Shown one piece after another: positions 1 to 64,000 of a stretch of DNA of 64,000 nt. The stretch lies in IMG/VR virus record IMGVR_UViG_3300030413_000012; one strand, given 5' to 3'. Source of the DNA: an uncultured virus (IMG/VR IMGVR_UViG_3300030413_000012). Its lineage: Duplodnaviria; Heunggongvirae; Uroviricota; Caudoviricetes. Made by a program: the position numbers and the translations under genes. The notes beneath the pieces were generated by a model. It ran no database searches, had not been told where the DNA came from, and was given only the letters and a program-made list of their open reading frames with translations. Position 1 is the first letter of the stretch, and each line of letters opens with the position of its first letter.

Positions 1-116
1 GATTATAAAATAATAGGTGATTACCTGAACAAAGAAAATGAAGAAATATTAAAAAACAGAATATATGATTTTTTAATACAGATGGAGTTAACTAATCAAA
101 CAGTAACCTTTGAAGC

Positions 117-326
117 ATGCAAAGAGAAAATAAAACCAACAAGCAAATACTTGTATTTGACTCTGTAAAAGAAAATGGTCTTATAATATCTTTTCAAAAA
201 ATGGAAAATAACTCATTAAAAATAAAAATGGGAAATGAAAAAATAAACACAGCATGTTTTGTTGTTCTTGAAAAAGAGCAAGTTGAAGATGTTAGAAAAC
301 TTATAGAACTTTCTTTAAAAAAGTAG
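117..326 (+). CDS. hypothetical protein (possibly 3' part of a longer gene beginning before the window)
   Basis: 69-aa ORF with coding-like composition; no motif recognised. Confidence 0.4.
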   Translation: MQRENKTNKQILVFDSVKENGLIISFQKMENNSLKIKMGNEKINTACFVVLEKEQVEDVRKLIELSLKK

Positions 327-340
327 TTTTTATTTAATTT

Positions 341-468
341 NNNNNNNNNNNNNNNNNNNNNNNNNNNNNNNNNNNNNNNNNNNNNNNNNNNNNNNNNNNN
401 NNNNNNNNNNNNNNNNNNNNNNNNNNNNNNNNNNNNNNNNNNNNNNNNNNNNNNNNNNNNNNNNNNNN
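341..468. other. assembly gap (128 N)
   Basis: run of n characters. Confidence 1.
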
Positions 469-522
469 ATCTGAAGCTGTCTGAAAAATAAATAATTTTA
501 ATTTTTTGTTTTATTTTTTATT

Positions 523-596
523 GGGTCTGTAACTCAGGTTGGTTAGAGTCCTGCACTTTTAGCAGGAGGTCATGGGTTCAAATCCCTTCAGACCCA
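523..596 (+). tRNA. tRNA-Lys(UUU), slightly atypical anticodon arm
   Basis: acceptor GGGTCTG/CAGACCC, D-stem ACTC/GAGT, anticodon stem CCTGC/GCAGG with loop ACTTTTA, T-arm ATGGG-TTCAAAT-CCCTT. Confidence 0.75.
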
Positions 597-597
597 T

Positions 598-924
598 TTA
601 TTTATTTTCTGGTTCTTTATAACAAGTTTCACATTCCCAGTAATTAATATATTTTGGTTTTGTCCCAGTAACATATTCTTCATTTTTAATCTTTTTTACT
701 TTCATACTTCCATCCTTATTAAGAAGCATCTTATTATTTTTATCAAAAAGAACCTCATATAGATATTTACTTCTTTTTATTGAATTAAGGTCAAATTTTC
801 CAAAATATTCAAAGGTGTGACCAAGTATTTTTCTATCAGATTTTCTGATTTTTACAACTCCTTTTTTACCACATACAAGGCATTGAGCTTTTTTAGTTTC
901 AATATTTTTTTCTGCTGTTCTCAT
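598..924 (-). CDS. hypothetical zinc-binding protein
   Basis: CLVC near N-terminus and CETC near C-terminus. Confidence 0.6.
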   Translation of the reverse strand: MRTAEKNIETKKAQCLVCGKKGVVKIRKSDRKILGHTFEYFGKFDLNSIKRSKYLYEVLFDKNNKMLLNKDGSMKVKKIKNEEYVTGTKPKYINYWECETCYKEPENK

Positions 925-984
925 TGTTTTCTACCTTTTTATTCTAATACTTATTATTATATTATTTTAATCATTATTAAAAAA

Positions 985-1353
985 TTATTCTGCAAGTTTA
1001 ATAAGTCCAACTGTTTTATTTAAATAATTTTTCATTTCTTCATGCAAATAAATTATCATATTAGCATCAGTATCAATTTCTTTTATGCTTCCTGTTTTTA
1101 TAACTGGAAATAATTTAACAGTATATTCTTTTTCTCCAATTTTTGCTGTAAAATTATTTTTTATAAAATTAACAGATTCTTCTTTGTTCATTGCTGTATT
1201 TACACCAACATAACCAACAATTGTGTCATTAAAAATATTTGTCATCTCTTGTGCTGGCACTGGAGTAGCTATAAAATATTTTATATCAAAAGAAATTGTT
1301 TCACCTCTCAATAATTGTTTGTTCCATTTATCTGTATAAGTTTTAGTTATCAT
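985..1353 (-). CDS. hypothetical protein
   Basis: 122-aa ORF in co-oriented minus-strand run. Confidence 0.65.
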   Translation of the reverse strand: MITKTYTDKWNKQLLRGETISFDIKYFIATPVPAQEMTNIFNDTIVGYVGVNTAMNKEESVNFIKNNFTAKIGEKEYTVKLFPVIKTGSIKEIDTDANMIIYLHEEMKNYLNKTVGLIKLAE

Positions 1354-3524: not shown

Positions 3525-4064
3525 TTAAACCCATTTTAAATAAGGTTTTATAATTTCAAATTCCTTTATAATATTATTTTTATCAGAAAAATGAATAAAA
3601 TTATATATTACTCTTCCTTTTTTTGTTGCCATCAGCTTGTTGTCTTTTGATAAACTTCTTATTGTTCCTTTTTTAGCTTTAGCTGGGTCTGTGCTACCAA
3701 CTAATAATTTAGCAGAATTTATTGCAGAACCTTTTTTCATTGCAACTATAATAACTGAAAAACCAGAAGTCATATATTTTGCTTGATTGTTTATTATTGT
3801 ATTTCCCAATGATAATGGTTCTGTTGTTTTATAAATTTTGTTAATATTGATATTTCTTTCTTTATCCAAATCAATTACAGATTGACCAATTTGTTTAAGA
3901 ACTAAATCTGTTTTATAATAAAATTTTTTCATATCCTTATATGAAAATAAAACTTTCTTTTTTATAACAAAAATAAAACCTGCTTTCTTAAGTTTGGATT
4001 CTATTATTTTTTGTAAGGAACTTGTTACACCTGGCTTTATTATAAAAAGTTCAATTTCATACAT
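3525..4064 (-). CDS. ndk: nucleoside-diphosphate kinase
   Basis: IIKPG, VGSTDPAKAKKGTIR, catalytic NFIHFSD motifs. Confidence 0.9.
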   Translation of the reverse strand: MYEIELFIIKPGVTSSLQKIIESKLKKAGFIFVIKKKVLFSYKDMKKFYYKTDLVLKQIGQSVIDLDKERNININKIYKTTEPLSLGNTIINNQAKYMTSGFSVIIVAMKKGSAINSAKLLVGSTDPAKAKKGTIRSLSKDNKLMATKKGRVIYNFIHFSDKNNIIKEFEIIKPYLKWV

Positions 4065-4440: not shown

Positions 4441-5100
4441 ATGGATAATAATATTACAGAACCAGATGTGCTGTTTTCTGTTTTTAAAAGAAAAGAATTC
4501 TGCATCAGAGATATTTTTTATAAGTTAAAACTTCCACCAGACCTTGTTCTTTTTATAAATAAAAACCCTAACAATAGACATTATGGAAATTTTATAAACC
4601 AATTTATAAAAAATAAAGGAAGAACTGGATTTGCATATGGTAATTTATTAAATCAACCAAATATACTTAATTTTATTTATGATATAAAAAACAATGATTA
4701 TATAAATATTTATATAATAAGTTACAAAAATACAAATGGTGCTTATCTTTTTAAAAATAATGAATATTTGACAGATGCCATCTTAAATGGAATAATATTA
4801 TCACATACCAAAGAATTTATCAGAAATGGTCAAAAGATTAGCCAGGAATATAGTATTACTTTAAATGATATTAAACAATCAAAGAGATTTATTATCCAGT
4901 TCATCAAGGAAAGCAGTTTTCTAGATATTGATTTTGTTAAAAAACAGAAGGATTCTTATTATAATGAAACAAAAACTGAAATAATTAGACCAATCCTGTT
5001 AAAAAATCATCTTTATAAAAAAATTGAAGAACTTGGACAAGAAAAAAGATTGGAAATAATAAATGAACTTTATAGTGAAATAATTAAACTGATTAACTGA
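4441..5100 (+). CDS. hypothetical protein
   Basis: long ORF (track 4390..5100); ATG 4441 preferred because the upstream part is TATA-like. Confidence 0.7.
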   Translation: MDNNITEPDVLFSVFKRKEFCIRDIFYKLKLPPDLVLFINKNPNNRHYGNFINQFIKNKGRTGFAYGNLLNQPNILNFIYDIKNNDYINIYIISYKNTNGAYLFKNNEYLTDAILNGIILSHTKEFIRNGQKISQEYSITLNDIKQSKRFIIQFIKESSFLDIDFVKKQKDSYYNETKTEIIRPILLKNHLYKKIEELGQEKRLEIINELYSEIIKLIN

Positions 5101-5826
5101 TTTTGTCTATTTTTATACAAAAAGTTACCCTTATATTTTTATAAAAAAGCTGTTTTTAGTATTTTTGTAATGGTAATTTCAATAATAAATGACATTATTT
5201 AATGAAGATTATTGCCATTTTTCTAAAATGGCTATAATTAAGCAAAATAAGCCCTAGAATCAATTTAGTTTATTACCCACTATTCTTATTGGGGTATTCA
5301 AATAAAATGCAGCACAGGTCAAAATTAAGCAATTATGGGGATTCTAGTGGAAGCTTATAATCTCACAAGAACCATAAAATAATATAAAACAGTTAAACCA
5401 ACCCTAATTAGATAAAAATAATCAGTCAATATTTGGTTAATTTAATTTAGTCAGGATAATTATAAGCAAATAATGGTCAAGTATAAGTTGGTCAAATATA
5501 TAAGATGGTCAAATATAAACTATCAGTTATAAAATAGATTTGATTAGATATTATATATACATAATTATATAAGACCAAGTTATAGCCCATCTTAAATTAG
5601 ATATTACTAACCCTCTAGAATCCACACAGTGAGCAGGAATGGCACCTAGAAACTCTTATCTTTTTTATGGTAACAAATATTATGCAAATAGATTAAATGA
5701 CAGCCTGGATGAAATTAAGGGCATTTATAGCAATGAAAGAAACCCTGGAAAATAAATAGTGAAAAAACTGGACTGAAAAATACTCTAATTAGGGGATTAA
5801 AATATTTTATTTGTATAATAATAAAG

Positions 5827-5885
5827 ATAATGCCATAAAATAGATAAAAATATGTTATATAATGCTATAAAATAGGTAAAAATAT
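5827..5885 (+). repeat. 27-bp imperfect direct repeat x2
   Basis: ATAATGCCATAAAATAGATAAAAATAT / ATAATGCTATAAAATAGGTAAAAATAT. Confidence 0.8.
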
Positions 5886-5916
5886 TACCTGAAGAGGAAG
5901 GGTGGCTCTTTGCACA

Positions 5917-5945
5917 AGCTTTCTCACTTAAAAGGGAGAAAGCTT
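5917..5945. repeat. perfect 10-bp hairpin
   Basis: AAGCTTTCTC ... GAGAAAGCTT. Confidence 0.8.
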
Positions 5946-6064
5946 GATATTATAAACTAAATCTGTTAAAGTTATATTTTTCTATAACTTTGATTAATTA
6001 ACTTAATTTTTTATTTACCAGTCTATTTCTCTTTCTATTCAAATTCCATTTTTATGAAAAGTCA

Positions 6065-6393
6065 TTACCAGAGTAATTCTCTCTCTAATCATATTCCATT
6101 TTTATGAAAGATTTTAATAAAAAGTGAAAAACCATCTGATTCAGAATTAAGATTTGGCTATTTGGAACACACATATACAAGTATATAATATATATAGTAT
6201 AGATGGATTGAGTTCCCAAATCAATGGTCCCTGCACATATAGTGCAGGGACCATCCATTTAAGGTCTCAATCTATATTAACTATATATATATCCTTCTTG
6301 TATATGTCCCAAAAAAGTAGCTAAAATCTTCCATAAAAATGGAAAATCTTCCATAAAAATGGAAAAGGTTTAGAGATAAAAATACTCTGGTAA
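6065..6393. repeat. long nested imperfect inverted repeat centred at 6239
   Basis: core ATGGTCCCTGCAC-atata-GTGCAGGGACCAT; outer pairs GATTGAG/CTCAATC, ACATATACAAG/CTTGTATATGT, ~50-bp arms TTACCAGAGTA... / ...TACTCTGGTAA. Confidence 0.9.
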
Positions 6394-6689
6394 AAAAATG
6401 TATAAAAAGCTTTTTATATATTGATTAATCAGGTAATGTAGCAGCCCTTCCTCTATTTCAATCCAGTTCACACCCAGACACCCTGTCTTTCAGGAGGAAG
6501 CAGCCCTTATTAGCTCACCATTACTTTATTTAACAGTTTACTATATTATGAGTCATTATTTAATTAATCAAATAATTTGAGTCATAAATAATAGGAGTCA
6601 TATTATAATCTGTCACCCTAAATTGATGACCTATATTTATGTTGATATAATAGGTTGGCAATATAATGTGTGATAATATATGTGCTATA

Positions 6690-6744
6690 ATATTATTATG
6701 ACTCATATTATTATGACTCATATTATTATGACTCATATTATTAT
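6690..6744 (+). repeat. perfect 15-bp tandem repeat x3.7
   Basis: ATATTATTATGACTC units. Confidence 0.95.
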
Positions 6745-7500
6745 CAAATCAAATTTACTGGCATATAATGCTTTAGTTTGGAGTTCTATTTAATATATTC
6801 AGGTAAACCTATTTTTATTAAAAATATAATAATAAAAGAGAGCAAACTAATGGATTGTTTTGAAAAATCCTTCATATCTGAAAAAACAGCCTTCTCTTCT
6901 ACAATATTCAAATTTGAATATTTACTTTACTACAAGCTCTCTCTATTCTACATGTAAAAAATGCCATTTTTTCAATGTGGGTAAAAATTCACCTATTGTT
7001 TTAGCCAAATACCTACCCTTTTTTGCTAATTTTTCAAATTAATTGATTTTCTCTCTATAAAATAAGGTTTCTGAAATTAATACAATTTTCACAGAAATTA
7101 GATTAAAATTAATCTGGTTTATCAATGTAATACTGCAACAGTTTCTCTTAAATAATTATCTGGCATTAATTCTTTAATTGGCTGGCTTTCTAACTTTGTT
7201 AGATTTATAAAGAAATAAAGCTTTTTATAATAATTACCTGCCTATTACAAAAGCTGGTCAATAAAATATATAACCTGTTTTTTATATGCTTTTATATTAT
7301 TTTATAGTTTGTTCTCAAAACTTTACTATCAGTTTAATCCTGTATCTTTCAATTTTTTAATGATTTCTTTTTTATTATAAATACTATTTTCTAAAAGTTC
7401 TGGCATATGGTTAATTCTTCTCTTTCATAATCACATTTTTTGTTTAGGTATTTGAACAACTATTTTTAAGGTGTTGTTTAATTAAATAATTAATGATTAA

Positions 7501-16084: not shown

Positions 16085-17776
16085 TTAAAGAAGTTTATTA
16101 ACAGCCTCTTCCATTTCATTCTTTGAAAAATTAAATCCAAGTTTTTCAACACTATTTTTTTCTCCAGTCAAAGCACTTGAATATGCTATTTTTTTCATAA
16201 GTATTTTTTTAACAGTTTCATCAAATTTTGTGTTTGTTAACAAATAATAAACATTTACTTTATCAGTTGTTGATGTTTTTCTTATCATTCTATATGTTCT
16301 TTGCCTTATTTTGCTTGCAAGAAGGGGTAGGTCATAATGCACCATTGCAGTTGTTGTTTCAAGATTTATTCCATAGGCAAGAATATCTGATGTGACTAAA
16401 ATGTTTATTTCTTTTGAGTCTTTGTATTCTTTTATTTTTACTTCTCTTTCTGTCTTTTTTAAATCAGAAGTTATACTAATAACCTTGAATCCATCATTTT
16501 GCAATTGAATTGTTAATTTATTCAAAATCAGTCTATATGAAGTAAATACAACCAGTTTTTCATTTATTTTTTCATTGAGTAGTTTTTTTAATTCATCATA
16601 TTTTTTACTGGATATTTCTTTTTCAGGCATGTTGTAATTAGCATCATCTAAAACAAGCCTTGTTCTCTGAAACATGTCTAAAAGCATGTTTGTGTCTGAT
16701 TTATATTTTTTAAACATGAGTTCCTGCCTTAGTTTTTGTAGTTCAAGACCCTGTTCTTTGCTAAGGTCAACAAATATATCTTTTACTATAATGTTTATTT
16801 TATTTAGTTCAGTGCCAACATCCTCTCTTGTTCTTTTTAGAAAGTATGGTTCAATTTCTTTAATTAGTTGTGATAAATTTTTAAAAAGAACAGGCTTTTT
16901 GATTATTTTGTTTCCAAAATGAAGAGTTTTGTAAACAACATAGTTGTTTACAAAGGTATCATATTCAAAAATATTAGTAAAGGTGTTTACTATATAAAAA
17001 AGGTCTAAAGGATGTTTTTCAACAATTTCACCAGACAATAACCAGTAATATTTTGCTTTAATCTTCATTAAACCAGTTCTTGCTTGTGTTGGATTTCTAA
17101 GAATACTTGCTTCATCACACACAATAATATCTGGATTAAATTTTATGTATTCTTCAAGATTTTTAGACCTTAATTGTTCATAATTTATTATTGTTGTATT
17201 TTTTTCAAATTCAGGATTATCATAAGAAAAAACATTTATTGTTTTTTGCCATGCTGAAATTGTGCTGGGCAAAACAACAATCAAAATCTTATTTATTTTT
17301 TTGGAATCAAATAAAAGTTTTAATGCAATAACTGTTTCAACTGTTTTGCCAAGACCTAAATCATCACCAAGTATTGCAAAGGTTCTATTCAAAAGAAAAT
17401 GAACACCATCAATTTGATATTTTGCAATTTCAAAATTGAAATCAGGATTTTTAACATCAAGGTCTGTTTTTATTTTATTCATTTTTTCTTCAACAAAATC
17501 CTTGTTAAAATTATTGGTTACATATAATTTTTCAATAGTTTGTTCTTCAAAACTTATGTTGTTTAAAAGAAAAGCAGTTTCTAAGTCTTTCTTTTTATCT
17601 TTTTGTAAAACCCAGAGTTTTGTTATTGGCTGATATTTGCACCCAAATTCTTTTAATATTTCATTTATTTTTTTATCAATAACATCAAATTTAAAACTAT
17701 TATTTTTTATTGAAATAATATTATTATTTTCAAATATTGTTATTTTTTGCATATTAGCCACTTTGAACATTACCAA
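16085..17776 (-). CDS. SNF2-family helicase/ATPase
   Basis: ILGDDLGLGKT, INYEQL, CDEAS, LLSG, YGINL, QRTYRMIR motifs. Confidence 0.9.
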   Translation of the reverse strand: MVMFKVANMQKITIFENNNIISIKNNSFKFDVIDKKINEILKEFGCKYQPITKLWVLQKDKKKDLETAFLLNNISFEEQTIEKLYVTNNFNKDFVEEKMNKIKTDLDVKNPDFNFEIAKYQIDGVHFLLNRTFAILGDDLGLGKTVETVIALKLLFDSKKINKILIVVLPSTISAWQKTINVFSYDNPEFEKNTTIINYEQLRSKNLEEYIKFNPDIIVCDEASILRNPTQARTGLMKIKAKYYWLLSGEIVEKHPLDLFYIVNTFTNIFEYDTFVNNYVVYKTLHFGNKIIKKPVLFKNLSQLIKEIEPYFLKRTREDVGTELNKINIIVKDIFVDLSKEQGLELQKLRQELMFKKYKSDTNMLLDMFQRTRLVLDDANYNMPEKEISSKKYDELKKLLNEKINEKLVVFTSYRLILNKLTIQLQNDGFKVISITSDLKKTEREVKIKEYKDSKEINILVTSDILAYGINLETTTAMVHYDLPLLASKIRQRTYRMIRKTSTTDKVNVYYLLTNTKFDETVKKILMKKIAYSSALTGEKNSVEKLGFNFSKNEMEEAVNKLL

Positions 17777-20700
17777 TTGTTATGCTTGGCATAATACCAT
17801 TTGGTGGAACAAGTCTTGTTCTTATCCAATAAATTGGTCCAATTGTTTCACCACTTGATTGTGAAATAAAACCTAAATGCCCAGACCATCCAGAATAATC
17901 AATTCCAGAAATGGTTGCTTTATTACCATAATTTGAAAATCCATTTAATGTTGTAGATGTTGAATAAACTGTTGGTAATTCTATACTATAAATAACACTA
18001 TTGGTATTTGGTAAATTTAATGCTGGAGAATCAGCATAAATATCACTTCCAGATGAACCCCATGCCACTAATCCATCATGTGGCACACCACTAAATCCAA
18101 AATTTCCAATTCCACCAAAATTATTGTTATCATTTGAACTATTAATTAATCCTAAAAGGACAAGATTGTTTACCCCAGTTTTTCCAGATACATCCATTTC
18201 ACCATAAAAATCAAGTATTATTGGACCAGTTGTTGTATATGTTGTTGTGTATATTTCTGGTGGACTAGTGCCTGATTCACTTGATTCAGGGTTTACTGTG
18301 ATTCCATTTGATACAACATAGTTATTATTTGTTCCATAATAAGCAGTCCATTTGCTTGTGTTTAAACTTGTTCCTTTGAAGTTAGAATAAAAATTAAATA
18401 CTTTAGCACCATTATCATATTGTCCATATGTTGAGGTCATATTTGGTGCTTCTCCTGCATAATTTTTATCATAATTAACTGTTTTTTGCTCAAAGGTCAT
18501 GTTTATAACTGCACTTGAACTTCCATTTATAACAAATGGTAGCTTAACCCAAAAAACAGTATTTGTAGAAGTATTAGAACATCCAGACTCACACCAAGAA
18601 TACAATTCAGTTGTTCCATAATAAAATCTTATGTTTCCTAAATTCCCATTTTCATAAGAAGAATATGTTGAAGGATTAAAAATGATTTGTTGTTGAAATC
18701 CTGATAATGTTGCAACTGTTTGTGAATTTGTTAATGTAATTGGTGAAAAATAAAATTTTGGTATAAAATTTGCTGTTTCTGTTATTGGATTATTTATTGT
18801 AAATGTAGTTATAGAATTTGTTCCACTATAACTTCCTGCACCAGTTCCTGTATAATTTTTAAACATACCAGTTGTTGAATTTACTGCTGTCAGTGTTATT
18901 TTTTGGTTTAATGGAACATAATAATTACAGGTTGTTTTGCAGGTTGATGTTGTGCCATTTGCAAAAGTTATTTGCACAGAAGTTCCTGAAACTGAAGATG
19001 TTGAATTATGAATAATTAAAGTAAATGGTGCTTCTCCATTATTATAGTCCCCTTCTAATGTGCAATTTGCATAAGAAGCTTTCATTACAAAGTTTCCAGT
19101 ATTTGTTGTGCCTATAATTTTATTACACAAACTTACATTCTTAAATGTATATAAATTTCCAACAGGAGAAGTGTATGTTGAAAGAAAAGTATAATTATAA
19201 TTATAAGAAGCATCAAATAATGCAGATGTGTTTGTAGTATAAGTTGTTTTATTTATAACTACACTCATACCACCATAACTTGTATTTATAAATAGGTTAT
19301 ATGGTGCAATTACATGAACAACAGAAACAGGACTAACTGCTGAAAAGTTTCCAGTTGAACCTTCTGCTTTTGCACAATAATAGGTTGTATTTTTAGGTGT
19401 AACAGTTGCTAATGTTGAGTTATCAATTACAGAAAATCCACTTGTTAAAGCAGTTGTGCAGGTTGTATTTGTATAACCATAATACCAATAAGCAGTATAT
19501 GGTGGTTTATAACCCAAAATATTACTGGTTAAATTTATTGATTGTCCTATGTTAATGGTTGAATTAAATGGTGTTGGCTGTGTTATATTCATTATAAATT
19601 GATTTAGATAGAATTCACTTGCTGGACTTTTTGTAATAGAACCATTTCTATCTTCAACTGTGTAATAAAAACTATAATTACCAGTTAAATTAGCAGATGA
19701 AGTAACAAAAGTTGTATTAGCTGTTTGTGTTGTTTTATATAAACTGTATAAATTATTATTTGGTGCTTTTTCATACCATTTGAAATTGAAATAGGTTGGA
19801 ACTCCACCAGTTGGGTGTGCTTGTAAATCTTCTGTTATTCTTTGATATGCTGGTATTGGTTTAAAGGTTATTGGTTTTCCAACAAGTAATGGATTTATAT
19901 TTCCAATGTATAGGTAAATTGGACCTGAACCATTTATTGTTATGCTTTTTTGTGCAACAAAATGATTGAAACTTGAAAATTCTGCAATATATTTTCCATT
20001 TTTAACAGTTATATGTGTTCCATTATCTGAAATTGGAAAAGAATAATTTGATATTCCAACAAGTGTGCTTTCTCCTGGAACAACAATATCATTAGCTGTT
20101 TCAATATAAAACACTGGTCTGCTTGTTTTATAAAATTTAAGTTTTATTGTTGAATTTACTGGACCAAAATAAGTCCCATTTTCTATATTAGTATTTGTGC
20201 ATTTTTCATAACAATATGTTATATTTATCATTTTTCCTGAATAAGGAATATTAATGATATTGTTGTATGTTCCTGATGCTATGTTGTAATTATTATATGA
20301 TTGTATATTATTAATCTTTATATTTATTTCATTTGTTGGAATAAAAGTTTGTGTTCCATTTTGTATTAAAAAACTAATATTTAATGTTTTTATTGTCAAT
20401 GGTAATGTATAGTTTGTTCCAACAAAATAAGGTTTATATACATTAAAATAGGATGACATTAGCTTTAGACTATTTATATCACTTGTAATAGGAAAATAGT
20501 AGGTTGAAAGATTCTGAAATAAGGGTTGAGTTAATTTTCCATTTATATAAACATAAGTTGAAGAATACATGTTTTTGATTTCTAATAATTTTTGTTGAAT
20601 TAATGGTATTGTTTTTACATAATAAAGATTAGTAGAATAAATAACCAGATTACCAGAAATTGTATTTGGTTGAATAAAAAATCTGCTTACTCCATTTGGT

Positions 20701-20978
20701 ATCACTGTTAAAGAAAGTGTTTTAATATAAGACTTTCCTGTGGAGGTAAAACCAGTAAATGTTCCTCTTCCTATTGAAATGGGTCCACCACTATTCACAA
20801 CAAATAAAGTTGAATTTTCTAAATAGAATGATACACTGGTGGTTAAAGCTGAGTCAAAATAAGTGATGGATTGCTGTGCATTGTAGGCTGTTATAGCTGG
20901 TAATATAAAAAATACTGTAACAAATATCAGCAATAATCCAAACATAAATATTATTGCCTGTTCAACAACTTCCTCCAT
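17754..20978 (-). CDS. large membrane-anchored surface protein with C-terminal DUF2341 domain
   Basis: N-terminal TM helix, T/S/N-rich beta repeats, NLGNIRFY...LYSWCESG...FWVKLP and YGQYDNGAKVF motifs. Confidence 0.8.
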   Translation of the reverse strand: MEEVVEQAIIFMFGLLLIFVTVFFILPAITAYNAQQSITYFDSALTTSVSFYLENSTLFVVNSGGPISIGRGTFTGFTSTGKSYIKTLSLTVIPNGVSRFFIQPNTISGNLVIYSTNLYYVKTIPLIQQKLLEIKNMYSSTYVYINGKLTQPLFQNLSTYYFPITSDINSLKLMSSYFNVYKPYFVGTNYTLPLTIKTLNISFLIQNGTQTFIPTNEINIKINNIQSYNNYNIASGTYNNIINIPYSGKMINITYCYEKCTNTNIENGTYFGPVNSTIKLKFYKTSRPVFYIETANDIVVPGESTLVGISNYSFPISDNGTHITVKNGKYIAEFSSFNHFVAQKSITINGSGPIYLYIGNINPLLVGKPITFKPIPAYQRITEDLQAHPTGGVPTYFNFKWYEKAPNNNLYSLYKTTQTANTTFVTSSANLTGNYSFYYTVEDRNGSITKSPASEFYLNQFIMNITQPTPFNSTINIGQSINLTSNILGYKPPYTAYWYYGYTNTTCTTALTSGFSVIDNSTLATVTPKNTTYYCAKAEGSTGNFSAVSPVSVVHVIAPYNLFINTSYGGMSVVINKTTYTTNTSALFDASYNYNYTFLSTYTSPVGNLYTFKNVSLCNKIIGTTNTGNFVMKASYANCTLEGDYNNGEAPFTLIIHNSTSSVSGTSVQITFANGTTSTCKTTCNYYVPLNQKITLTAVNSTTGMFKNYTGTGAGSYSGTNSITTFTINNPITETANFIPKFYFSPITLTNSQTVATLSGFQQQIIFNPSTYSSYENGNLGNIRFYYGTTELYSWCESGCSNTSTNTVFWVKLPFVINGSSSAVINMTFEQKTVNYDKNYAGEAPNMTSTYGQYDNGAKVFNFYSNFKGTSLNTSKWTAYYGTNNNYVVSNGITVNPESSESGTSPPEIYTTTYTTTGPIILDFYGEMDVSGKTGVNNLVLLGLINSSNDNNNFGGIGNFGFSGVPHDGLVAWGSSGSDIYADSPALNLPNTNSVIYSIELPTVYSTSTTLNGFSNYGNKATISGIDYSGWSGHLGFISQSSGETIGPIYWIRTRLVPPNGIMPSITIGNVQSG

Positions 20979-21058
20979 TTAAATATCAATATATTCTTTT
21001 TTATTCTTTTAAAATTTGGATAGGGTTTAAGCATGTTTATATCATAGTAACTGATAAT

Positions 21059-21544
21059 ATGTCCTGGAATATTAATTTTACAAATACCATAAATTTCTAT
21101 AAGGAAACCTTGATAAAAGATTCAGAAACCACAGCAACAGCTAACTCTTTTCAAAATGATGAATTTATTAAAAAAATGATTTTTACTTACACTACTTTAT
21201 TTGAAACTGTTAAAAAAGAAACAGCAATTAAAACTGATTTAATACTAATAACTTCAATATTAAATTATTTCAAAACAGAAAAAAATATAAAACCAAGTGG
21301 CATTCTTGTTCAGTGTTTAAATACAGGAATTCATAAAAATCATGACTATGGTAGCAACAATATATTAAGATTTGGTAGCAAAGGAATATATGTTAGAATT
21401 GTTGATAAACTTTCAAGAGTATCTAATCTTTTATTGACCCAAAAACAAGCAGAAGTATTTGATGAGAAAATAGAAGACACCATGTTAGATATAATAAATT
21501 ACTGTATTTATGATATAATGCTTCAGAATAACATATGGGAATAA
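21059..21544 (+). CDS. DUF1599 / nucleotide-modification-associated (MazG-like fold) protein
   Basis: KNHDYG...VRIVDKLSR...EKIEDTMLDIINY; ATG 21059 avoids overlap with the divergent gene. Confidence 0.8.
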   Translation: MSWNINFTNTINFYKETLIKDSETTATANSFQNDEFIKKMIFTYTTLFETVKKETAIKTDLILITSILNYFKTEKNIKPSGILVQCLNTGIHKNHDYGSNNILRFGSKGIYVRIVDKLSRVSNLLLTQKQAEVFDEKIEDTMLDIINYCIYDIMLQNNIWE

Positions 21545-38319: not shown

Positions 38320-38323
38320 AGTA

Positions 38324-40532: not shown

Positions 40533-40946
40533 GTGGAGGGAGTTGTTTTAGAAATTCTTTTTGCAATTATTGTAATTGCACTTGGAACAATTGTTTATGC
40601 TTATTATGAAGTAGGACAACTTTCTGCAACACAGCAAGCTGAAGCATTAATTGCATACCATGAGGCACAAGAATTTAACAATTTAACACAAGCTACTAAT
40701 TTTTCATGCACAACAACACTTTCAAGTTTTGAAATTCTTTCTTCAGGAATTGTTTCTTTTTCAGCACCAGTTTCTTATAAAAAGGCTGTAACATACACTG
40801 GTGGAATACCAAATCAAAATACAATATACTATGCATCAGGAAAGTTTTTTGTTCTTTCTCCATATCCAATAGTTGCTGGAAACTATACAAATACAAAAAT
40901 ATGCATTATACCCTCAGCATCAAATCCTGTTTTTACATTTGAATAA
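40533..40946 (+). CDS. small N-terminally anchored surface protein (minor-pilin-like)
   Basis: MEGVVLEILFAIIVIALG helix, Cys pair, beta-rich. Confidence 0.65.
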   Translation: MEGVVLEILFAIIVIALGTIVYAYYEVGQLSATQQAEALIAYHEAQEFNNLTQATNFSCTTTLSSFEILSSGIVSFSAPVSYKKAVTYTGGIPNQNTIYYASGKFFVLSPYPIVAGNYTNTKICIIPSASNPVFTFE

Positions 40947-43800: not shown

Positions 43801-43840
43801 TACAACACCAACATCCTATAAAAAAATCCTTAAATTATCA

Positions 43841-44722: not shown

Positions 44723-44724
44723 AT

Positions 44725-46230
44725 ATGTCAGACAATATAACAATTAATTATGAATTTAACAATTGCATAGATATAATTACAGAACTGCAAAAAATTGCAA
44801 CACAAGCAAAAAATTCTAATGCTGATAATGAAACTATAGAATATGTAAAATTAAAAAATGCTTATATGTTAAATGCCCAATATCAATTTTCAATGGAAAA
44901 AACAGAAGATGCATCTGGTGATATTTTAATTGGAGGTATTATTGCAACTAAAAATCCATTTCAATGCATACAAGTAAAATTTGCTGCATCAAAAGAACTG
45001 GTTGAAAAATTTACTCCAATGTATAAAACTTTTTATTATAGTGACCAAGCTGATACTAAAATATCAGAAACTTATTTTCCTAAAGCAGACCTCATTCTAA
45101 AACTAATAACAAGACCTAAAACTGATACTGAAAAAGCAAGTGCTGATGTTTATATTGAAGAGATTTATCCAATTGATACAGATAAAGAAATAGGACAAAT
45201 TGAACTGAATAAAACAGAAACCACTGAAAGTCTAAGAAATAAAGCAATTGATATATTAAGAAAAAAACCATTTCTTATTGGATTTGCTGGTGTAAAAAAT
45301 ATTATAATACCAATTGTTTTCAATAATGATTCTGATTATAATAAATTTCCTGAAATTCATAATTTTTCAATACCAAATACAACCTCTTTAAATCAATTGC
45401 TTGTAAAAGTGGATGTTTTTTCTGGCTTCAAAAAAGGTGTTATTAAGGTTCCTGTCTTTTTGGGTGAACCTAAAATAATGATGTTAATGGGAACCATGAA
45501 TCAGGATGTAATAAATATATTCAGAAGTAAATTCATAATACTAGACAACTATCAATATGTAAACACAGCAACTTTCATACCTATTTTTATAACCAATATT
45601 GAAAAAATATTTGATATAACAAATACACAGGCATCTAGTGATTTAAAAACATCAACATTTATTAATGATATTATTGCAAACAGTAATATTGATGATATAA
45701 AAACATTGATAAAAGTAAAACCATTTACAGTTGAAGAACTTGAAAAAGAAGGTATTATGATGAATGATACCATGATTTTTCTGGTATTAACAGGACTATT
45801 AATAAAAGAAAATTATTATTTTGATAATGATACACTGTGGGCTATAAAAAATTTATTTAATACCAAGACACTTTTGGCTGAAGCAAATAAATTAATAACA
45901 GAAACTGACTTAGAAAACATACTTTCAATTTATGTATTTATGAAAGCAATGCTTAAAGACCACCCTGAATATAAAGATGTGGGAATGGAAGATATTGTTA
46001 ATGACATTGTTGAAAAAACAATAACAATCACCCTTTCAGATTTCAAAACAAAATTTATAGATTTTTATAGAATAAGTGAAAAAAGATTTGAAACAATCAA
46101 AAAAGATGTATTTGAAACATCTGGTCTTTTTGAAGTAACAGAAGAAACAGAAGGAAATGATATTGAAAAAATAAGAATGACTAAAAATGTTAAAGATTAT
46201 ATTAAACAAAAAAAGAGTGATATTAAATGA
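44725..46230 (+). CDS. hypothetical protein, paralog of 35968..37344; possible degenerate MCM-like protein
   Basis: shared block with 35968; overlaps primase start; no Walker A. Confidence 0.7.
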   Translation: MSDNITINYEFNNCIDIITELQKIATQAKNSNADNETIEYVKLKNAYMLNAQYQFSMEKTEDASGDILIGGIIATKNPFQCIQVKFAASKELVEKFTPMYKTFYYSDQADTKISETYFPKADLILKLITRPKTDTEKASADVYIEEIYPIDTDKEIGQIELNKTETTESLRNKAIDILRKKPFLIGFAGVKNIIIPIVFNNDSDYNKFPEIHNFSIPNTTSLNQLLVKVDVFSGFKKGVIKVPVFLGEPKIMMLMGTMNQDVINIFRSKFIILDNYQYVNTATFIPIFITNIEKIFDITNTQASSDLKTSTFINDIIANSNIDDIKTLIKVKPFTVEELEKEGIMMNDTMIFLVLTGLLIKENYYFDNDTLWAIKNLFNTKTLLAEANKLITETDLENILSIYVFMKAMLKDHPEYKDVGMEDIVNDIVEKTITITLSDFKTKFIDFYRISEKRFETIKKDVFETSGLFEVTEETEGNDIEKIRMTKNVKDYIKQKKSDIK

Positions 46231-47471
46231 TGCTATATAATGAAGAATTAAAAGAATATCTGAGACATTTTCCAAATATATTTGTTTGGAAATCCATAAA
46301 TGGAAAAATAGAAGAACATTCTTCAAAAATGTTGTTTTATCAAATAGAGCCATTAATTGATGAAACCTCAACTATTGATGTAAAATATGAATTTCATACA
46401 GGTTTAGATATAATTCAATATCTTGAAAATGATGAAATTAAAAATGCATTTGGAATAGCAATTGATATTGATACAAAAGGAAGAGAACAAGAAGTAACTG
46501 TGGAAAATTTAACTCTTGGAAAAAAAATTGCTGTAAAACTTCAGAAAACATTTGCAGCACATGGTATAAACACAATGCTAAAATTTAGTGGTGGTGGTTA
46601 TCATATAATTATTATATTTAGTGAAGACATAATTGATGCCACCTTTACTAAAAAAGACATGCTAAAGGTTATTAAAAGTATAATTAAAGAAACAAAACTG
46701 GACAAAAGTATTGTAAAAGATGTTGAAATAAAAGGTGATAAAATAAGGTCTTTGTATTCATATAATTCAAAATATGGAAATTATTCAATACTAACTGATG
46801 CAACAATACCAGCAAAAGAAGATATAAAAAGAGCAAAGGAATATAACAAACAAGAACTTGATTTTAATAATTTAATAACCATGAAAATAACAAATAAAAA
46901 TACTTTAGATGAAATAGAAATGCAAAAACAAAAAAATGAAAAACAAAAACAATTTATAGATAATCTTCTTTTGGTTGGCAAGGCTTTTGAAAAACTAGGC
47001 ATTAACCCTAAAACAGTATTTGACCAAAAAACAGGTGATGTTTTTCCTGAGATAAAAACAAAAGTTGTGGATAAACTTATTGAAATGACAAACAAAAAAC
47101 CCAAAGAAATAAATGAATACATATTATATTTTGTAAAAACAGAAAAGAACATGGGTTTCTATGACAAAATAGTTGAAAGGGGTGTAAAGGATGGGAGAAA
47201 AAGATTATTATTTTTAGTAGTTGGTCCATATCTTGCATTAAAATATCCTGGAAATAAAGAAAAAATTAAAGAAGAATTAGAGAAATGGCTTCAAAAATCT
47301 GGTGTTAGTTCAAATGATTTATACTCATATTCAGCAGAAATAAACTCACTTGTAAATGGTATGGAAATTGGTGTAAGACCAACATCCATTGATTCTTTAC
47401 TTATAAGATTTGGTATTGATTCAAAAAAAGAATTTCTTGAACAATATGTAAATGGTGGAACAAATGACTGA
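46227..47471 (+). CDS. archaeo-eukaryotic primase (PriS catalytic domain fused to PriX-like C-terminal domain)
   Basis: AIDID, KFSGGGYH, DKIR; C-terminal GVKDGRKRLLFLVVGPYL. Confidence 0.85.
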   Translation: MMLYNEELKEYLRHFPNIFVWKSINGKIEEHSSKMLFYQIEPLIDETSTIDVKYEFHTGLDIIQYLENDEIKNAFGIAIDIDTKGREQEVTVENLTLGKKIAVKLQKTFAAHGINTMLKFSGGGYHIIIIFSEDIIDATFTKKDMLKVIKSIIKETKLDKSIVKDVEIKGDKIRSLYSYNSKYGNYSILTDATIPAKEDIKRAKEYNKQELDFNNLITMKITNKNTLDEIEMQKQKNEKQKQFIDNLLLVGKAFEKLGINPKTVFDQKTGDVFPEIKTKVVDKLIEMTNKKPKEINEYILYFVKTEKNMGFYDKIVERGVKDGRKRLLFLVVGPYLALKYPGNKEKIKEELEKWLQKSGVSSNDLYSYSAEINSLVNGMEIGVRPTSIDSLLIRFGIDSKKEFLEQYVNGGTND

Positions 47472-48408
47472 TGTAGAAAAAATTATTAATGATATAATAA
47501 AAAATAGTAAAAAATATAAAAATGAAGAGGAACAGTTTTATTATTTAATAAGTCATAATGTCTGCCCAAAATGTCATACATCAACAATAGCACATAAAGA
47601 TGGAGACACTTATTGTGAAAAATGTGGAGTTGTATGGGATACATTTGAAGCATATTATTCACATGGAACAACTATGGAAACAGGTAATAGGTCAGAAATA
47701 TATGTTCCACCAACAAATCTTTCTGCAAAGGCATCTCCAACAAGGTCTTTTGTTAGCAGTAGAAATCTTTCTTCTAAAAATAAAGAAAAATTCAGAAGAT
47801 TAAGCCAGATGGATTTTTACATTAAGGCTGGTCAATCAGAAAATGTTAATTTACTAAGAAATTTAAAAAGAATAGTCTCTTTACTTTCACATAATCAAGC
47901 ATTATATGATAAACATATAATTGAAGAAACAGCACTGCTAATACAAAATGATGTTCAAAAATATTTGGGTGAAAAGAAAAAAACAAATGTTTATACAATT
48001 ATGGTGTTAACCTTTATGCTTCTTCATTTACCAATAGACAAAAAATTATTATATGAAACTTCAAATAATCAGCATTTAAAAACATTTGCACATTTTAAGA
48101 AAAATATAAATAGAGGTATTGAAGAAATAATGAAAAAATTACCAGAAGCAGAAAAAATAAACATAAAGAAAAAATTAATAGAACAGATAGCAAAACAATA
48201 TAAAATAAAATATAATGAAAAAATATTAGATTTGGTTTACAAAAAAACACAAGAAATAATAAATCTTGCACCAAATAATGGTTTAGAAAATGCAGCAAGA
48301 GCAATTTTTGAGATAAACAAATACAATAAACTTCACATACAATTCATATATGGTAAACATAAAGACAAAATAGAAAAAATAATGAAAAATGTTAATTTAG
48401 ATTTTTAG
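47452..48408 (+). CDS. tfb: transcription factor B (TFIIB)-like protein
   Basis: Zn ribbon CPKC...DGDTYCEKCGVV, KFRRLSQ linker, helical cyclin-like C-terminus. Confidence 0.75.
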   Translation: MVEQMTDVEKIINDIIKNSKKYKNEEEQFYYLISHNVCPKCHTSTIAHKDGDTYCEKCGVVWDTFEAYYSHGTTMETGNRSEIYVPPTNLSAKASPTRSFVSSRNLSSKNKEKFRRLSQMDFYIKAGQSENVNLLRNLKRIVSLLSHNQALYDKHIIEETALLIQNDVQKYLGEKKKTNVYTIMVLTFMLLHLPIDKKLLYETSNNQHLKTFAHFKKNINRGIEEIMKKLPEAEKINIKKKLIEQIAKQYKIKYNEKILDLVYKKTQEIINLAPNNGLENAARAIFEINKYNKLHIQFIYGKHKDKIEKIMKNVNLDF

Positions 48409-48415
48409 TGATACT

Positions 48416-51560: not shown

Positions 51561-51571
51561 ATTAAGTTAAA

Positions 51572-51644
51572 TAGTCCTAAAAGGGGTTGAACCTTTATCT
51601 TTAGTTTCAGAAACTAGAATGCTTAACCATTACACCATAGGACT
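51572..51644 (-). tRNA. tRNA-Gln(CUG)
   Basis: AGTCCTA/TAGGACT acceptor, loop TTCTGAA, T-arm AAAGG-TTCAACC-CCTTT. Confidence 0.88.
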
Positions 51645-51648
51645 ATAA

Positions 51649-51721
51649 TAACCCTAACAGGATTTGAACCTGTGTCTTTTGGCTCAAAACCAAATATGCT
51701 GGTCCACTACACCATAGGGTT
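51649..51721 (-). tRNA. tRNA-Gln(UUG)
   Basis: AACCCTA/TAGGGTT acceptor, TTTGG-TTTTGAG-CCAAA, T-arm ACAGG-TTCAAAT-CCTGT. Confidence 0.92.
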
Positions 51722-61298: not shown

Positions 61299-61328
61299 CT
61301 TTTTAAATATTTTATAAAACAAAATATT

Positions 61329-61595
61329 ATGTTGACAAAGGAGGACTTGCAAAAAATGCAGTTTATTAACAACAGTGTTAATTATTTTCTTTTTATAAAA
61401 TATGCAATAATGTTAAGCCCACCTGAAAAAAGAAAACATTCAATTGAAATTGCAAAAAGAATTTGGAAATACTTTGTTGATTATTCAAACAGAAACTGGA
61501 TAACAGCAATAAATTACTTTGATAAAGAAGATGCTGAATTATTTTTAAAAATATTTAATTCATTGGAAAAATTTGATAATGCTAAATATTTGTGA
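61329..61595 (+). CDS. hypothetical protein
   Basis: 88-aa ORF. Confidence 0.55.
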   Translation: MLTKEDLQKMQFINNSVNYFLFIKYAIMLSPPEKRKHSIEIAKRIWKYFVDYSNRNWITAINYFDKEDAELFLKIFNSLEKFDNAKYL

Positions 61596-61819
61596 TTTAT
61601 GCTTCCATATTTTATAAAATTTTTAAATAGTCTTTTTTAATAAAAAGTTATGTCATTTGACTGTATTTGTGAACACCATAAAAAAGGAGAAAAATATTGC
61701 TATAACTGTCAAATATTTGGTTGCAAAAATAAGGATGGCTTTATTTGGTATGAAAAAGCATGGGATTAAATAAAAAGATATTATTAAATATATAGCAGTC
61801 CCAAATAATATTGAATTGC

Positions 61820-63145
61820 ATGTTATTATATACCAAAGAAATTCTTGATGAAATTGAATCCCATTTTGCAGATAAAAGTTTCAATAGATTTAAGATTAAA
61901 GACAATACCTTCATTTTTACAAAATCATCAAAGGAAGGAATTTATATACAAAGAGTTTCAAACTTTGCATTAGGGCTTGCATATGATACAACTAATAAAC
62001 AATTTATTTTTAACTATCCACATCTTAGCAACATAAAAACTGTTTCAGATGTTCCTCAAAATTCTATTGTCCAAGAAAAACTTAATGGAACAAATGTTGG
62101 GATTATTAAACTTGCAGATGGTTCAATAATTTACAGAACCAGAGGAAGCATTGAACCAGATACTTTTATGAATAACATAAATTCTGCAATTTTGGAGGGG
62201 GCTAAAACTCTTGTTGGAATAAATGAAGAAGTATTTGATGATTTTAAAAATAAATATATTGATATATTAAGAGAAGGTATAAAAAAATATATTGATGATT
62301 TTGGAAATGTGCTGATGACAAGTATTGGAACAGAACTTGTAAATGAATTAAAATATATTTTTATTGAAAATTGGAAAATTGTTGGAATATTTGGAGAACT
62401 TATTTCAAAATATAATCCAATTGCAGTTGATTCAAAAATGAAGTTTGGAATGTATCTTGATATGCCAGAAGATTATCAGTTTTATATTTTTGATATAATG
62501 GTTACAGATAATGGTGGAAATATTTATTTTGCAGAACCATCAGAACTTAAGTTAATAAGGAAAACAAAGCTTATAAAAACAGTTTCTTCTGAAAAACTTT
62601 CAGACATCAATGCAATGCAAAATAAATTTATAAATGAAGAGGGTGTTATTGCAAAATCTTCAGAAGGTTATTATAAAATAAAAAAAGATGAAGTTTTAGA
62701 GTGGGAAAGACTTCTTGGAAAATTAAGCAATGTTGTTGTATTTTCAATAAATCATGTTTTTGAAGAGAATGGTTTTTCAACAAATGAAGTTTTAAACAAG
62801 AAATTTTTAGAGCCAAATGCAATAGAACCTTTAATTTTGTCTTCATGGCAAGAAATAAAAAATAATGGTGTTTCAGAAAATGATTTGATTGAATATTATG
62901 GTTCTAAGAACAAGGTTGATACTGAAATTAAAAGCATTGTTTCAGAAAAAGTATTGATTGGAATTGCAAGTGTTTTAATTAAAAATAATATTACTACAAA
63001 AGAAAAATTATATCTTGCACTTCCTGAATATTTCCAATTTACAGAACCTGTTCTTGATTGGAATGAAAGAAGAGGTAAATTATTACCTATAAAAAGTTAT
63101 GCTTTGATGATAAGAAAAATAATTGGAAATGTAGTAGGAAAATAA
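61820..63145 (+). CDS. ATP-dependent RNA ligase (Rnl-type nucleotidyltransferase)
   Basis: QEKLNGTN motif I, FGE, FYIFDI, EEGVIAK, YKIK. Confidence 0.8.
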   Translation: MLLYTKEILDEIESHFADKSFNRFKIKDNTFIFTKSSKEGIYIQRVSNFALGLAYDTTNKQFIFNYPHLSNIKTVSDVPQNSIVQEKLNGTNVGIIKLADGSIIYRTRGSIEPDTFMNNINSAILEGAKTLVGINEEVFDDFKNKYIDILREGIKKYIDDFGNVLMTSIGTELVNELKYIFIENWKIVGIFGELISKYNPIAVDSKMKFGMYLDMPEDYQFYIFDIMVTDNGGNIYFAEPSELKLIRKTKLIKTVSSEKLSDINAMQNKFINEEGVIAKSSEGYYKIKKDEVLEWERLLGKLSNVVVFSINHVFEENGFSTNEVLNKKFLEPNAIEPLILSSWQEIKNNGVSENDLIEYYGSKNKVDTEIKSIVSEKVLIGIASVLIKNNITTKEKLYLALPEYFQFTEPVLDWNERRGKLLPIKSYALMIRKIIGNVVGK

Positions 63146-63172
63146 ATAAAAATAACTAGGCTTATAAACTAA

Positions 63173-63862
63173 TTACATATAACCTAAATCTCTTAATTTT
63201 TTCATTATCTTTTCTTTTTCTGCATTTCTACTGGCTCTTTCATTTTCTGATGAACAGGATATTTCTTTTATTATATCAGGAATAGTTTTAGCATTACTGT
63301 TTATTGATGCTGAACAAAATGAGCAACCTAAACTTCTATATCTTTGTCCATCCTTTGCAAAATATAATGGATTAACTTTTATTTTATTTTCTTTTATGTA
63401 GTTCCAAATATCAAGTTCAGTCCAATCCAAAATAGGATGAACTCTTTTTTTATTAAATTCTTTTTCATCTGCTCTTGCTGGATTTTCATCTCTTCTTATT
63501 GCAACAAAAAGAACATCATATTTTTGTTCTAATTTTTTTAATGCATCAATTTTATTATATGAACAACAATTTCCATCTTTTTGATAATTTTCTGGAAGAA
63601 TTGATTTTTCAATAACTAAATTAAAGCCAAGTTCTTTTTGTTTATCTTTTAAAAAAGTATAAGATTCTTTAAATTCAACTCCATTATCAATAAAACCAAC
63701 ATCAAATGGAATTTTGCCAAATGCTTTTTTTATTAAATGCAATAAAACAGTGCTATCCTTTCCAAGACTAAACATTACTATTGGTTTTTTAAATTTAGTT
63801 ACTGTTTCTTTAATTATACTTATTGATTTATGTTCTTTATATTCCAAATCTTCTGTAATCAT
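63173..63862 (-). CDS. PAPS-reductase-family / CysD-like adenylyltransferase
   Basis: FSLGKDS PP-loop, RRDENPAR, HPILDWTELDIW, YRSLGC, MKKLRDLGYM. Confidence 0.85.
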   Translation of the reverse strand: MITEDLEYKEHKSISIIKETVTKFKKPIVMFSLGKDSTVLLHLIKKAFGKIPFDVGFIDNGVEFKESYTFLKDKQKELGFNLVIEKSILPENYQKDGNCCSYNKIDALKKLEQKYDVLFVAIRRDENPARADEKEFNKKRVHPILDWTELDIWNYIKENKIKVNPLYFAKDGQRYRSLGCSFCSASINSNAKTIPDIIKEISCSSENERASRNAEKEKIMKKLRDLGYM

Positions 63863-63911
63863 TTTATTTCCTTTTTTATATTCTTATATTTATATAATTA
63901 TTTGTTTAAAA

Positions 63912-63995
63912 TGCTGGTGATAGGATTTGCACCTATGAAGTCCTAAGACAAAAGGGTTTAAGCCTTTCCAGTTTGACTGCTTCTGATACACCAGC
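63912..63995 (-). tRNA. tRNA-Leu(UAA)
   Basis: GCTGGTG/CACCAGC-A, AAAGG-CTTAAAC-CCTTT, long variable arm, ATAGG-TGCAAAT-CCTAT. Confidence 0.9.
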
Positions 63996-64000
63996 ATATA

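Follow-up and report, generated by a model that had tools for sequence, protein, structure and literature searches.

The DNA considered here is a stretch of 64,000 nucleotides, recorded in IMG/VR as an uncultured virus (IMGVR_UViG_3300030413_000012) and referred to below, at its full length, as the window; it spans roughly half of a ~118-kb replicon that belongs to archaea of acid mine drainage. The window holds genes for a family B DNA polymerase, an MCM-like protein, a primase-like protein and both subunits of topoisomerase VI, along with a set of genes for nucleotide metabolism and several tRNA genes, and nowhere among them or between them is there a CG dinucleotide. Four longer words that contain no CG are missing as well:

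1..64000, both strands: stretch without CG, GATC, GTAC, GGCC or GATATC (k-mer counts)

With 22614 A, 8623 C, 7750 G, 24885 T and 128 N, the window is very AT-rich (25.6% G+C); its sole masked stretch, a run of 128 N, lies at 341-468, just upstream of a tRNA-Lys gene. Base composition predicts 1044 CGs. The original prediction, made by eye, was that CG is wholly absent from the 64 kb, at about 25% G+C and with about a thousand CGs expected, and that GC, CC and GG are common. The dinucleotide count that it called for bears out all three statements: CG stands at 0, which sets a 95% upper bound of 0.0029 on its observed/expected ratio (o/e), and the ratios for GC, CC and GG all exceed 1 (1.28, 1.26 and 1.31, respectively). 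TG (1.28) and CA (1.31) are also over-represented. The absence extends to every sequence context, each of the 16 NCGN combinations having a count of 0 against an expectation of between 15 and 159. Palindromic contexts account for 323 of the 1046 CGs expected by context; the remaining 723 would fall in 12 non-palindromic contexts, every one of which is empty.

The same holds for each functional compartment of the DNA. Our working gene set comprised the 70 open reading frames (ORFs) of at least 80 amino acids, which amount to 16603 codons and 78% of the window. Arginine, a rare residue here (2.09% of codons), is written as AGA (303) or AGG (44) and never as CGN, just as had been read from a sample of codons, and NCG codons number 0. 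Junctions between codons are equally devoid of CG (0 C|G junctions against 272 expected): among two-fold codons ending in a pyrimidine, C is the final base in 0 of 1413 cases where the next codon begins with G, compared to 13-25% where it begins with A, C or T. Sequence outside the 70 ORFs (14 kb) contains 0 CGs where 191 are expected, and the six tRNA genes reported by ARAGORN contain 0 where 21 are expected. The T-loops of the tRNAs – GGTTCAAATCC, GGTGCAAATCC and GGTTCAACCCC – read as first described, without CG. Among the tRNA genes are:

522-597, plus strand: tRNA-Lys (ARAGORN; Rfam tRNA, 45.9 bits)
4292-4376, plus strand: tRNA-Leu-CAA (ARAGORN)
51571..51721, minus strand: two tRNA-Gln genes, CTG and TTG (ARAGORN; Rfam tRNA, 64.4 and 59.1 bits)
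63911-63996, minus strand: tRNA-Leu-TAA (ARAGORN)

Rfam, at its gathering score, confirms three of the six. An odd 71-nucleotide ARAGORN 'tRNA' with a two-base anticodon lies at 4218-4288, directly upstream of tRNA-Leu(CAA), and has no Rfam confirmation; its ends pair into a long GC-rich stem.

The loss of CG is accompanied by the loss of specific longer words. Compared to dinucleotide-preserving shuffles, GATC is found 0 times against 113.6±10.5, GTAC 0 against 84.8±8.8, GGCC 0 against 36.2±5.2 and GATATC 0 against 11.2±3.3. By Markov expectations GTATAC, CTGCAG and CCATGG are also at 0, although the numbers expected are small (5.9, 5.5 and 4.3). Half of the palindromic tetramers (8 of 16) are wholly absent, namely all four GNNC palindromes and all those with CG, while counts for seven of the remaining eight show only a slight deficit, at 0.65-0.86 times the number expected from a Markov model; a both-strand k-mer scan placed ATAT at 0.86 and TATA at 0.91. 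The degenerate neighbours of the missing words – GANTC, GTNAC, GAWTC, GTWAC and GCNGC – occur at or above expectation, and the signal therefore attaches to particular words, which is how restriction avoidance behaves. What has gone are short words, most of them palindromes, and similar words are kept: such an all-or-nothing, word-specific pattern is the signature of restriction-site avoidance.

Several of the missing words have been described in archaea. According to the available portion of a published study (PMC10609329), GATC (N6-methyladenine), GTAC, GGCC and CGCG (N4-methylcytosine) are motifs of widespread and persistent archaeal Type II methyltransferases; the same portion pairs the GGCC motif with a nuclease in Sulfolobus acidocaldarius and puts the Type II methyltransferase genes of Thermoplasmatales at about 5 per genome. 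GATC and GGCC rank with the most under-represented palindromes in both cells and viruses from acid mine drainage, as stated in the part of the study available to us (PMC2745766).

The absence of CG might itself be a sum, built up by many restriction systems whose sites happen to contain CG (CGCG, ACGT, TCGA, GCGC, CCGG and non-palindromic sites). The element does avoid several distinct sites at once, and CGCG is a known archaeal methyltransferase motif in the available text of PMC10609329. Yet the 12 non-palindromic contexts, all at 0, would have held 723 of the 1046 expected CGs, so that many more systems acting simultaneously would be needed, and the similar non-CG words GANTC, GTNAC and GCNGC are not avoided. 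We regard a sum of this kind as unlikely. Because the non-palindromic contexts are empty, a single agent that reads CG itself is favoured over many agents with longer CG-containing sites.

What, then, does the window encode? Searches of the 70 ORFs were made against Pfam, PHROGs and NCBIfam, and against PADLOC for defence genes. The genes for replication and repair, together with a possible origin, are as follows (values are those of the family matches):

5100..7500: non-coding stretch, possible replication origin (no ORF of at least 80 amino acids over ~2.4 kb)
40933..43800, minus strand: family B DNA polymerase (PolB), 955 amino acids (Pfam DNA_pol_B 6.8e-21, DNA_pol_B_exo1 1.5e-13)
44725..46230, plus strand: MCM-like protein, 501 amino acids, likely replicative helicase (predicted fold; Foldseek)
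46227..47471, plus strand: primase-like protein with a PriX-like C-terminus (Pfam PriX 1.3e-5; NCBIfam primase_PriX 4.4e-6 and PrimPol 8.2e-5, both under the curated cut-offs)
47452..48408, plus strand: TFIIB-type zinc ribbon protein (Pfam Zn_Ribbon_TF 5.1e-6, under the gathering score)
48416-49621, plus strand: Mre11 (Metallophos 2.6e-14; Mre11_Sulfo 1.1e-26)
49622-51325, plus strand: Rad50 (AAA_23 1.1e-23, SMC_N 8.7e-19, Rad50 zinc hook; Rad50 2.1e-44)
55123-56247, minus strand: topoisomerase VI subunit A (TOP6A Toprim 1.3e-38)
56491-58062, minus strand: topoisomerase VI subunit B (TopoVI-B; Topo-VIb_trans 9.3e-41; top6b 2.7e-125, above the cut-off)

The stretch at 5100-7500 may be a replication origin, to judge from its repeats: a 15-nucleotide unit, ATATTATTATGACTC, is repeated head to tail at 6690-6744 in the manner of iterons, a tandem 20-mer occupies 6323-6362, and inverted repeats of 50-66 nucleotides lie at 6010-6400.

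A second group of genes concerns nucleotides and nucleic acid processing:

3525..4064, minus strand: nucleoside diphosphate kinase-like protein (NDK 2e-13)
12242-12775, minus strand: second, weaker 5'-nucleotidase copy (phrog_420 3.1e-12)
16085..17776, minus strand: SNF2-family helicase (SNF2-rel_dom 1.2e-17, Helicase_C 2.8e-17; phrog_62 1.1e-61)
17754..20978, minus strand: large DUF2341 protein, 1074 amino acids (DUF2341 3.7e-8)
20954..21544, plus strand: DUF1599, 'nucleotide modification associated domain 1' (PF07659 4.7e-7; phrog_1485 8.7e-14)
22406..22996, plus strand: 5'-deoxynucleotidase, NT5C (NT5C 3.9e-9; phrog_420 4.8e-16)
26528..27001, minus strand: deoxycytidine triphosphate (dCTP) deaminase (TIGR02274 5.8e-38, above the cut-off; phrog_1663 1.2e-45)
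29111..29797, minus strand: DEDD (RNase T / DnaQ-like) exonuclease (RNase_T 1.1e-10; phrog_192 1.5e-21)
31434..32000, minus strand: phage-type deoxynucleoside monophosphate (dNMP) kinase (phrog_139 5.4e-27; P-mevalo_kinase 5e-9)
38324-40468, minus strand: second DUF2341 protein, 714 amino acids (DUF2341)
63173-63862: PAPS-reductase-like protein

The two DUF2341 proteins match phrog_7548 (2.5e-25 and 1.6e-20), and relatives of the element have a DUF2341-type protein adjoining PolB. Further families in the window include a DEAD-box helicase, an RNA ligase and an AbiEii-like nucleotidyltransferase. The dense nucleotide-metabolism set – DUF1599, dCTP deaminase, dNMP kinase, two 5'-nucleotidases, NDK and the PAPS-reductase-like protein – resembles the gene sets with which some phages reshape nucleotide pools or modify their DNA.

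Just upstream of the primase, in a replication block with that gene, the TFIIB-like protein and Mre11/Rad50, lies the ORF at 44725-46230. It is ORFan-like: a word-based search for homologues returned only the ORF itself, an exhaustive search 12 homologues, and neither Pfam nor the PDB gave a sequence match. Its AlphaFold model (pLDDT 79.3, pTM 0.76) has MCM chains as its best Foldseek matches in the PDB (E 4.7e-7, with TM scores of only 0.22-0.32), and on the strength of this predicted fold the protein is likely to be a replicative helicase. A faint resemblance to Mrr-like nucleases was considered and set aside, the Atlas score to Mrr_cat clusters (0.77) being below the noise level of the tool and the fold MCM-like. 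The ORF at 35926-37344 gave no usable match in Atlas.

The original prediction had also pointed to methyltransferases and nucleases as genes to look for. Among the 70 window ORFs no methyltransferase or restriction-nuclease family was matched in Pfam, PHROGs, NCBIfam or PADLOC, and this fits passive avoidance rather than self-modification. Nor did the window ORFs match any of the sequence-specific endonuclease families HNH, GIY-YIG, PD-(D/E)xK and Mrr, or any C5 or N4 methyltransferase or DNA cytosine deaminase family; the sole deaminase match is the dCTP deaminase, which acts on a nucleotide.

These results bear on the possibility, raised in the original prediction, that the absence of CG serves offence: a CG-cutting nuclease encoded by the element would shred the DNA of host or competitors for nucleotides, the element being immune for want of the site. 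A full salvage set (dNMP kinase, NDK, two 5'-nucleotidases and dCTP deaminase) together with Mre11/Rad50 and the DEDD exonuclease could recycle DNA; the element is very AT-rich; and many ORFs match no known family (22 of the 60 scanned have a Pfam match at E ≤ 0.001). Against this, no sequence-specific endonuclease family is present among the 70 ORFs, the weak Mrr lead at 44725-46230 folds like MCM, and a weapon aimed at CG leaves the loss of GATC, GTAC and GGCC unexplained. We consider an offensive role quite unlikely.

A further issue is the nature of the replicon. No ribosomal protein, aminoacyl-tRNA synthetase or RNA polymerase family was matched among the 70 ORFs, and a single cluster of polymerases of at least 90% identity carries the labels Micrarchaeaceae, Saccharolobus and Conexivisphaerales in three bins. 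Because near-identical polymerases are binned to three archaeal lineages and core cellular gene families are absent, we take the window to belong to an extrachromosomal element: probably a virus or megaplasmid with its own archaeal-type replication machinery that binning tools assign haphazardly. The lack of core translation and transcription genes, the possession of its own replication genes, a bounded size and inconsistent binning are all found together, the longest contigs with polymerases of this family being 70-138 kb and that of the window itself 118 kb. Public bins of several archaeal lineages appear to contain contigs of the family. As for virion genes, searches for capsid, portal and terminase recovered no structural family in the window beyond a weak tape-measure match (E 2.4e-4); one relative encodes an FtsK/HerA-type ATPase of 878 amino acids, as well as a protein that bears a class III signal peptide.

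The replication proteins also set the family apart. PolB has 15 homologues at 40-61% identity, the next match being at 29%, and TopoVI-B has 15 element-type homologues at 46-63%, followed by cellular proteins at 31-37%. Among the cellular TopoVI-B matches with an organism name, 15 of 22 are of Micrarchaeia lineage, which suggests Micrarchaeia as the nearest cellular gene relatives. Deposited phages and plasmids include no relative above 28% identity, the nearest entry in a viral contig collection – from which the family is absent – reaches 35% over its best segment, and a species-genome collection contains nothing closer than 31%. The element is a member of a so far undescribed family of large mobile elements of archaea, equipped with their own PolB, an MCM-like protein, a primase and topoisomerase VI.

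Comparison with relatives allowed us to ask whether the missing words are a property of this family or of the window alone. Seven metagenome contigs with 43% PolB identity (L081-L087) were compared at the DNA level; closer relatives (55-61% identity in PolB, 63% in TopoVI-B) were compared as proteins only. In the seven contigs CG is present at an o/e of 0.68-0.94, CGN and NCG codons are used, C-ending codons are as frequent before G as elsewhere (16-30%), and counts of GATC are ordinary. CG absence as a family-wide trait is thereby ruled out for these seven relatives, and since their CG is normal the loss must be specific to the lineage of the window; across all 240 other loci compared, the lowest CG o/e was 0.235. 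GGCC is another matter: it is at 0 in all seven relatives, where 4-17 are expected in each, which shows selection of the restriction type at work across the family. CG, GATC and GTAC were lost later, in the lineage that led to the window. GTAC is reduced in all seven of these contigs and CATG in six of them.

So complete an absence raises the question of whether it might be produced by data processing, or by base modification at CG that makes sequencers report TG or CA instead. The DNA of the window is present in at least 9 public runs labelled mine drainage metagenome (2011, 2012 and 2015), and contigs from four runs were compared with positions 31001-51000. One contig of run X1 is identical over the whole interval, with 0 differences, and this run may be the source of the window. 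Contigs of runs X6 and X7, from a second sample, differ at 34 sites over the 20 kb and still have a CG count of 0; GATC, GTAC, GGCC and GATATC are likewise all at 0 in this variant. The exact polymerase protein of the window is recorded from 8 contigs. In an alignment of PolB, arginine is retained at nine of the ten columns in which at least 12 of 15 relatives have it, and its codons are AGA or AGG. The original prediction would have been undone by the same absence in unrelated contigs or by a processing artefact; in the same runs, CG, GATC and GTAC do occur in the loose ends of other contigs.

Identical or near-identical independent assemblies and the presence of CG in other contigs of the same runs thus rule out an artefact of the data. 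The conserved arginine columns and the intact ORFs do the same for a modified base, because a systematic misreading of CG as TG or CA would not leave reading frames intact. We give an artefact of either kind virtually no credence.

The strain differences offer a further view of the process. None of the 34 creates a CG, where 2.87 would be expected if changes were blind to their neighbours (Poisson P ~0.06), and there is no excess of C-to-T changes (C>T 5, G>A 5, T>C 5, A>G 8; n=34). Several other features of these assemblies deserve mention. Contigs of X6 and X7 skip 230 bases at 32330-32561, a strain indel that falls in non-coding DNA separating the dNMP kinase gene from that of the DEAD-box helicase. 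An RNA library of 2017 from another study (X10) yielded 8 short contigs that match the window, seven at 99-100% identity and one at 90-95%; they show that nucleic acid of the element was present there, which does not show transcription. Lastly, the segment 39152-39217, inside the 714-amino-acid DUF2341 gene, has 80-90% identity to several other abundant contigs of the same runs, the flanks of which are AT-rich and contain CG. These contigs are probably co-occurring related elements that are not CG-free.

Another route to a shortage of CG is mutational decay, in which CG is methylated by an M.SssI/M.MpeI-like enzyme of host or element that produces 5-methylcytosine, or is attacked by a CG-directed deaminase, and C-to-T changes then erase it, ordinary purifying selection doing no more than preserving protein function. 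The excess of TG and CA (1.28 and 1.31) is what changes from CG to TG and CA predict, and in Mycoplasma penetrans CpG under-representation has been tied to a CpG-specific methyltransferase (available portion of PMC11282364). Other evidence runs counter to it. An o/e below 0.003 stands far beneath the lowest value (0.235) among the 240 other loci, and the conserved arginines are encoded by AGA or AGG, which a single C-to-T change in CGN does not yield. The window ORFs match no C5 or N4 methyltransferase or DNA cytosine deaminase family, and C-to-T is not in excess among the 34 strain differences. Moreover, plain decay of methylated C would predict a loss limited to CG alongside the TG/CA excess, and the loss is not so limited: GATC, GTAC, GGCC and GATATC, which CG decay could not remove, are at 0 too. 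Decay is, in our estimation, improbable as the cause. The original prediction had argued for hard selection rather than plain decay of methyl-C. Hard selection is supported, because methylation and deamination of CG cannot explain the loss of words that contain no CG, and the prediction gains from the finding that the loss of CG is lineage-specific.

Our data lead us to favour selection for escape from host defence. It is on balance probable that selection has purged this extrachromosomal replicon of acid mine drainage archaea of short words read by the defence enzymes of its hosts, the bare dinucleotide CG included. The selective agent would be a DNA-targeting defence; a host restriction system aimed at CG was one of the two candidate agents named in the original prediction. 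In outline, enzymes of the hosts would recognise GATC, GTAC, GGCC, GATATC and CG; DNA without a target would escape cutting; and purifying selection would remove each new CG as it arose. In the case of CG, one agent reading the dinucleotide itself would be at work, rather than many reading longer sites that contain it. Complete loss would be attainable at no cost to the proteins, since CG is its own reverse complement and the standard code offers a synonymous way out of every CG. In that code NNC can always be exchanged for NNT without changing the amino acid, NCG codons belong to four-fold boxes, and arginine codons of the form CGN can be written as AGR.

Several points weigh against this interpretation. 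We know of no prokaryotic defence, restriction enzymes included, that reads bare CG, and a full-text search of the literature, covering few subscription journals, found no restriction-like enzyme specific for CG. The argument is built on the DNA of the element, of which the window covers 64 kb of ~118 kb, so that a methyltransferase or nuclease could lie in the other ~54 kb. The excess of TG and CA is equally expected from deamination of methylated CG, and the strain-variant test is weak (Poisson P ~0.06 for 0 against 2.87).

Self-complementarity admits one more explanation based on defence. Were CG the protospacer-adjacent motif of a host CRISPR system, a genome free of CG would be neither sampled nor targeted, and its loss would clear the motif from both strands at once. 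The classic restriction palindromes that are absent along with CG point instead to restriction-type enzymes, and we know of no protospacer-adjacent motif that consists of CG. Escape from CRISPR therefore seems to us very unlikely.

Returning to target avoidance, a more specific proposal can be made, which we put forward tentatively and regard as possible though doubtful: that acid mine drainage archaea, either Micrarchaeia or the Thermoplasmatales that partner them, or else the element, own an enzyme that reads bare CG, and that this is the first prokaryotic replicon known to have evolved off a whole dinucleotide so as to evade that enzyme or turn it to use. A full-text literature search that took in few subscription journals found no prokaryotic virus or plasmid described as CG-free. 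Were the proposal true, the recognition word of the enzyme would be the shortest of any restriction-like system, and an enzyme specific for CG would represent both new biology and a useful tool, whether as cutter or as reader. For the hosts, so complete an absence of CG predicts that unmodified CG is recognised either by a defence or by a weapon of the virus, along with blanket protection of CG in host DNA.

There exist a number of parallels with known systems, each of which is instructive also for where it ends. Chlorella viruses, with their frequent-cutting nucleases, and phage T4 break down host DNA, the target being a very short word or unmodified cytosine, and reuse its nucleotides. They provide the model for an offensive role of CG loss, yet they protect their own DNA by modification and not by loss of the word. 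The case of M.MpeI (Mycoplasma penetrans) and M.SssI resembles ours in that CG is affected and TG and CA are in excess (in the available parts of PMC11282364 and PMC4752239). There, however, as described in the accessible text of PMC11282364, depletion is partial, concerns a cellular genome and is ascribed to methylation, whereas in the element CG is at zero, restriction sites without CG are lost as well and no methyltransferase was found in the window.

Closer in habitat are the acid mine drainage archaea and viruses of Dick et al. 2009 (PMC2745766), in which, as in our element, GATC and GGCC are scarce. What is reported in the available text of that study is under-representation of tetranucleotides, with CG unmentioned ('CpG' occurs 0 times in that text and 'dinucleotide' once); here the absences are total. 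The nearest precedent is the K-like Staphylococcus phage PYOSa, which, according to the available portion of the report (PMC7958385), has no GATC in 127 kb: like our element, it has fully lost a short palindromic target from a genome of ~100 kb or larger without self-methylation. Unlike PYOSa, the element has also lost a bare dinucleotide, at ~1044 sites per 64 kb and in 16 flanking contexts. The known cases of site loss in phages concern words of at least 4 bases; a CG-free replicon of more than 100 kb would imply a selective agent acting at about a thousand positions per 64 kb, and would take the avoidance of restriction targets down to two bases, in a hitherto undescribed family of large mobile elements from archaea.

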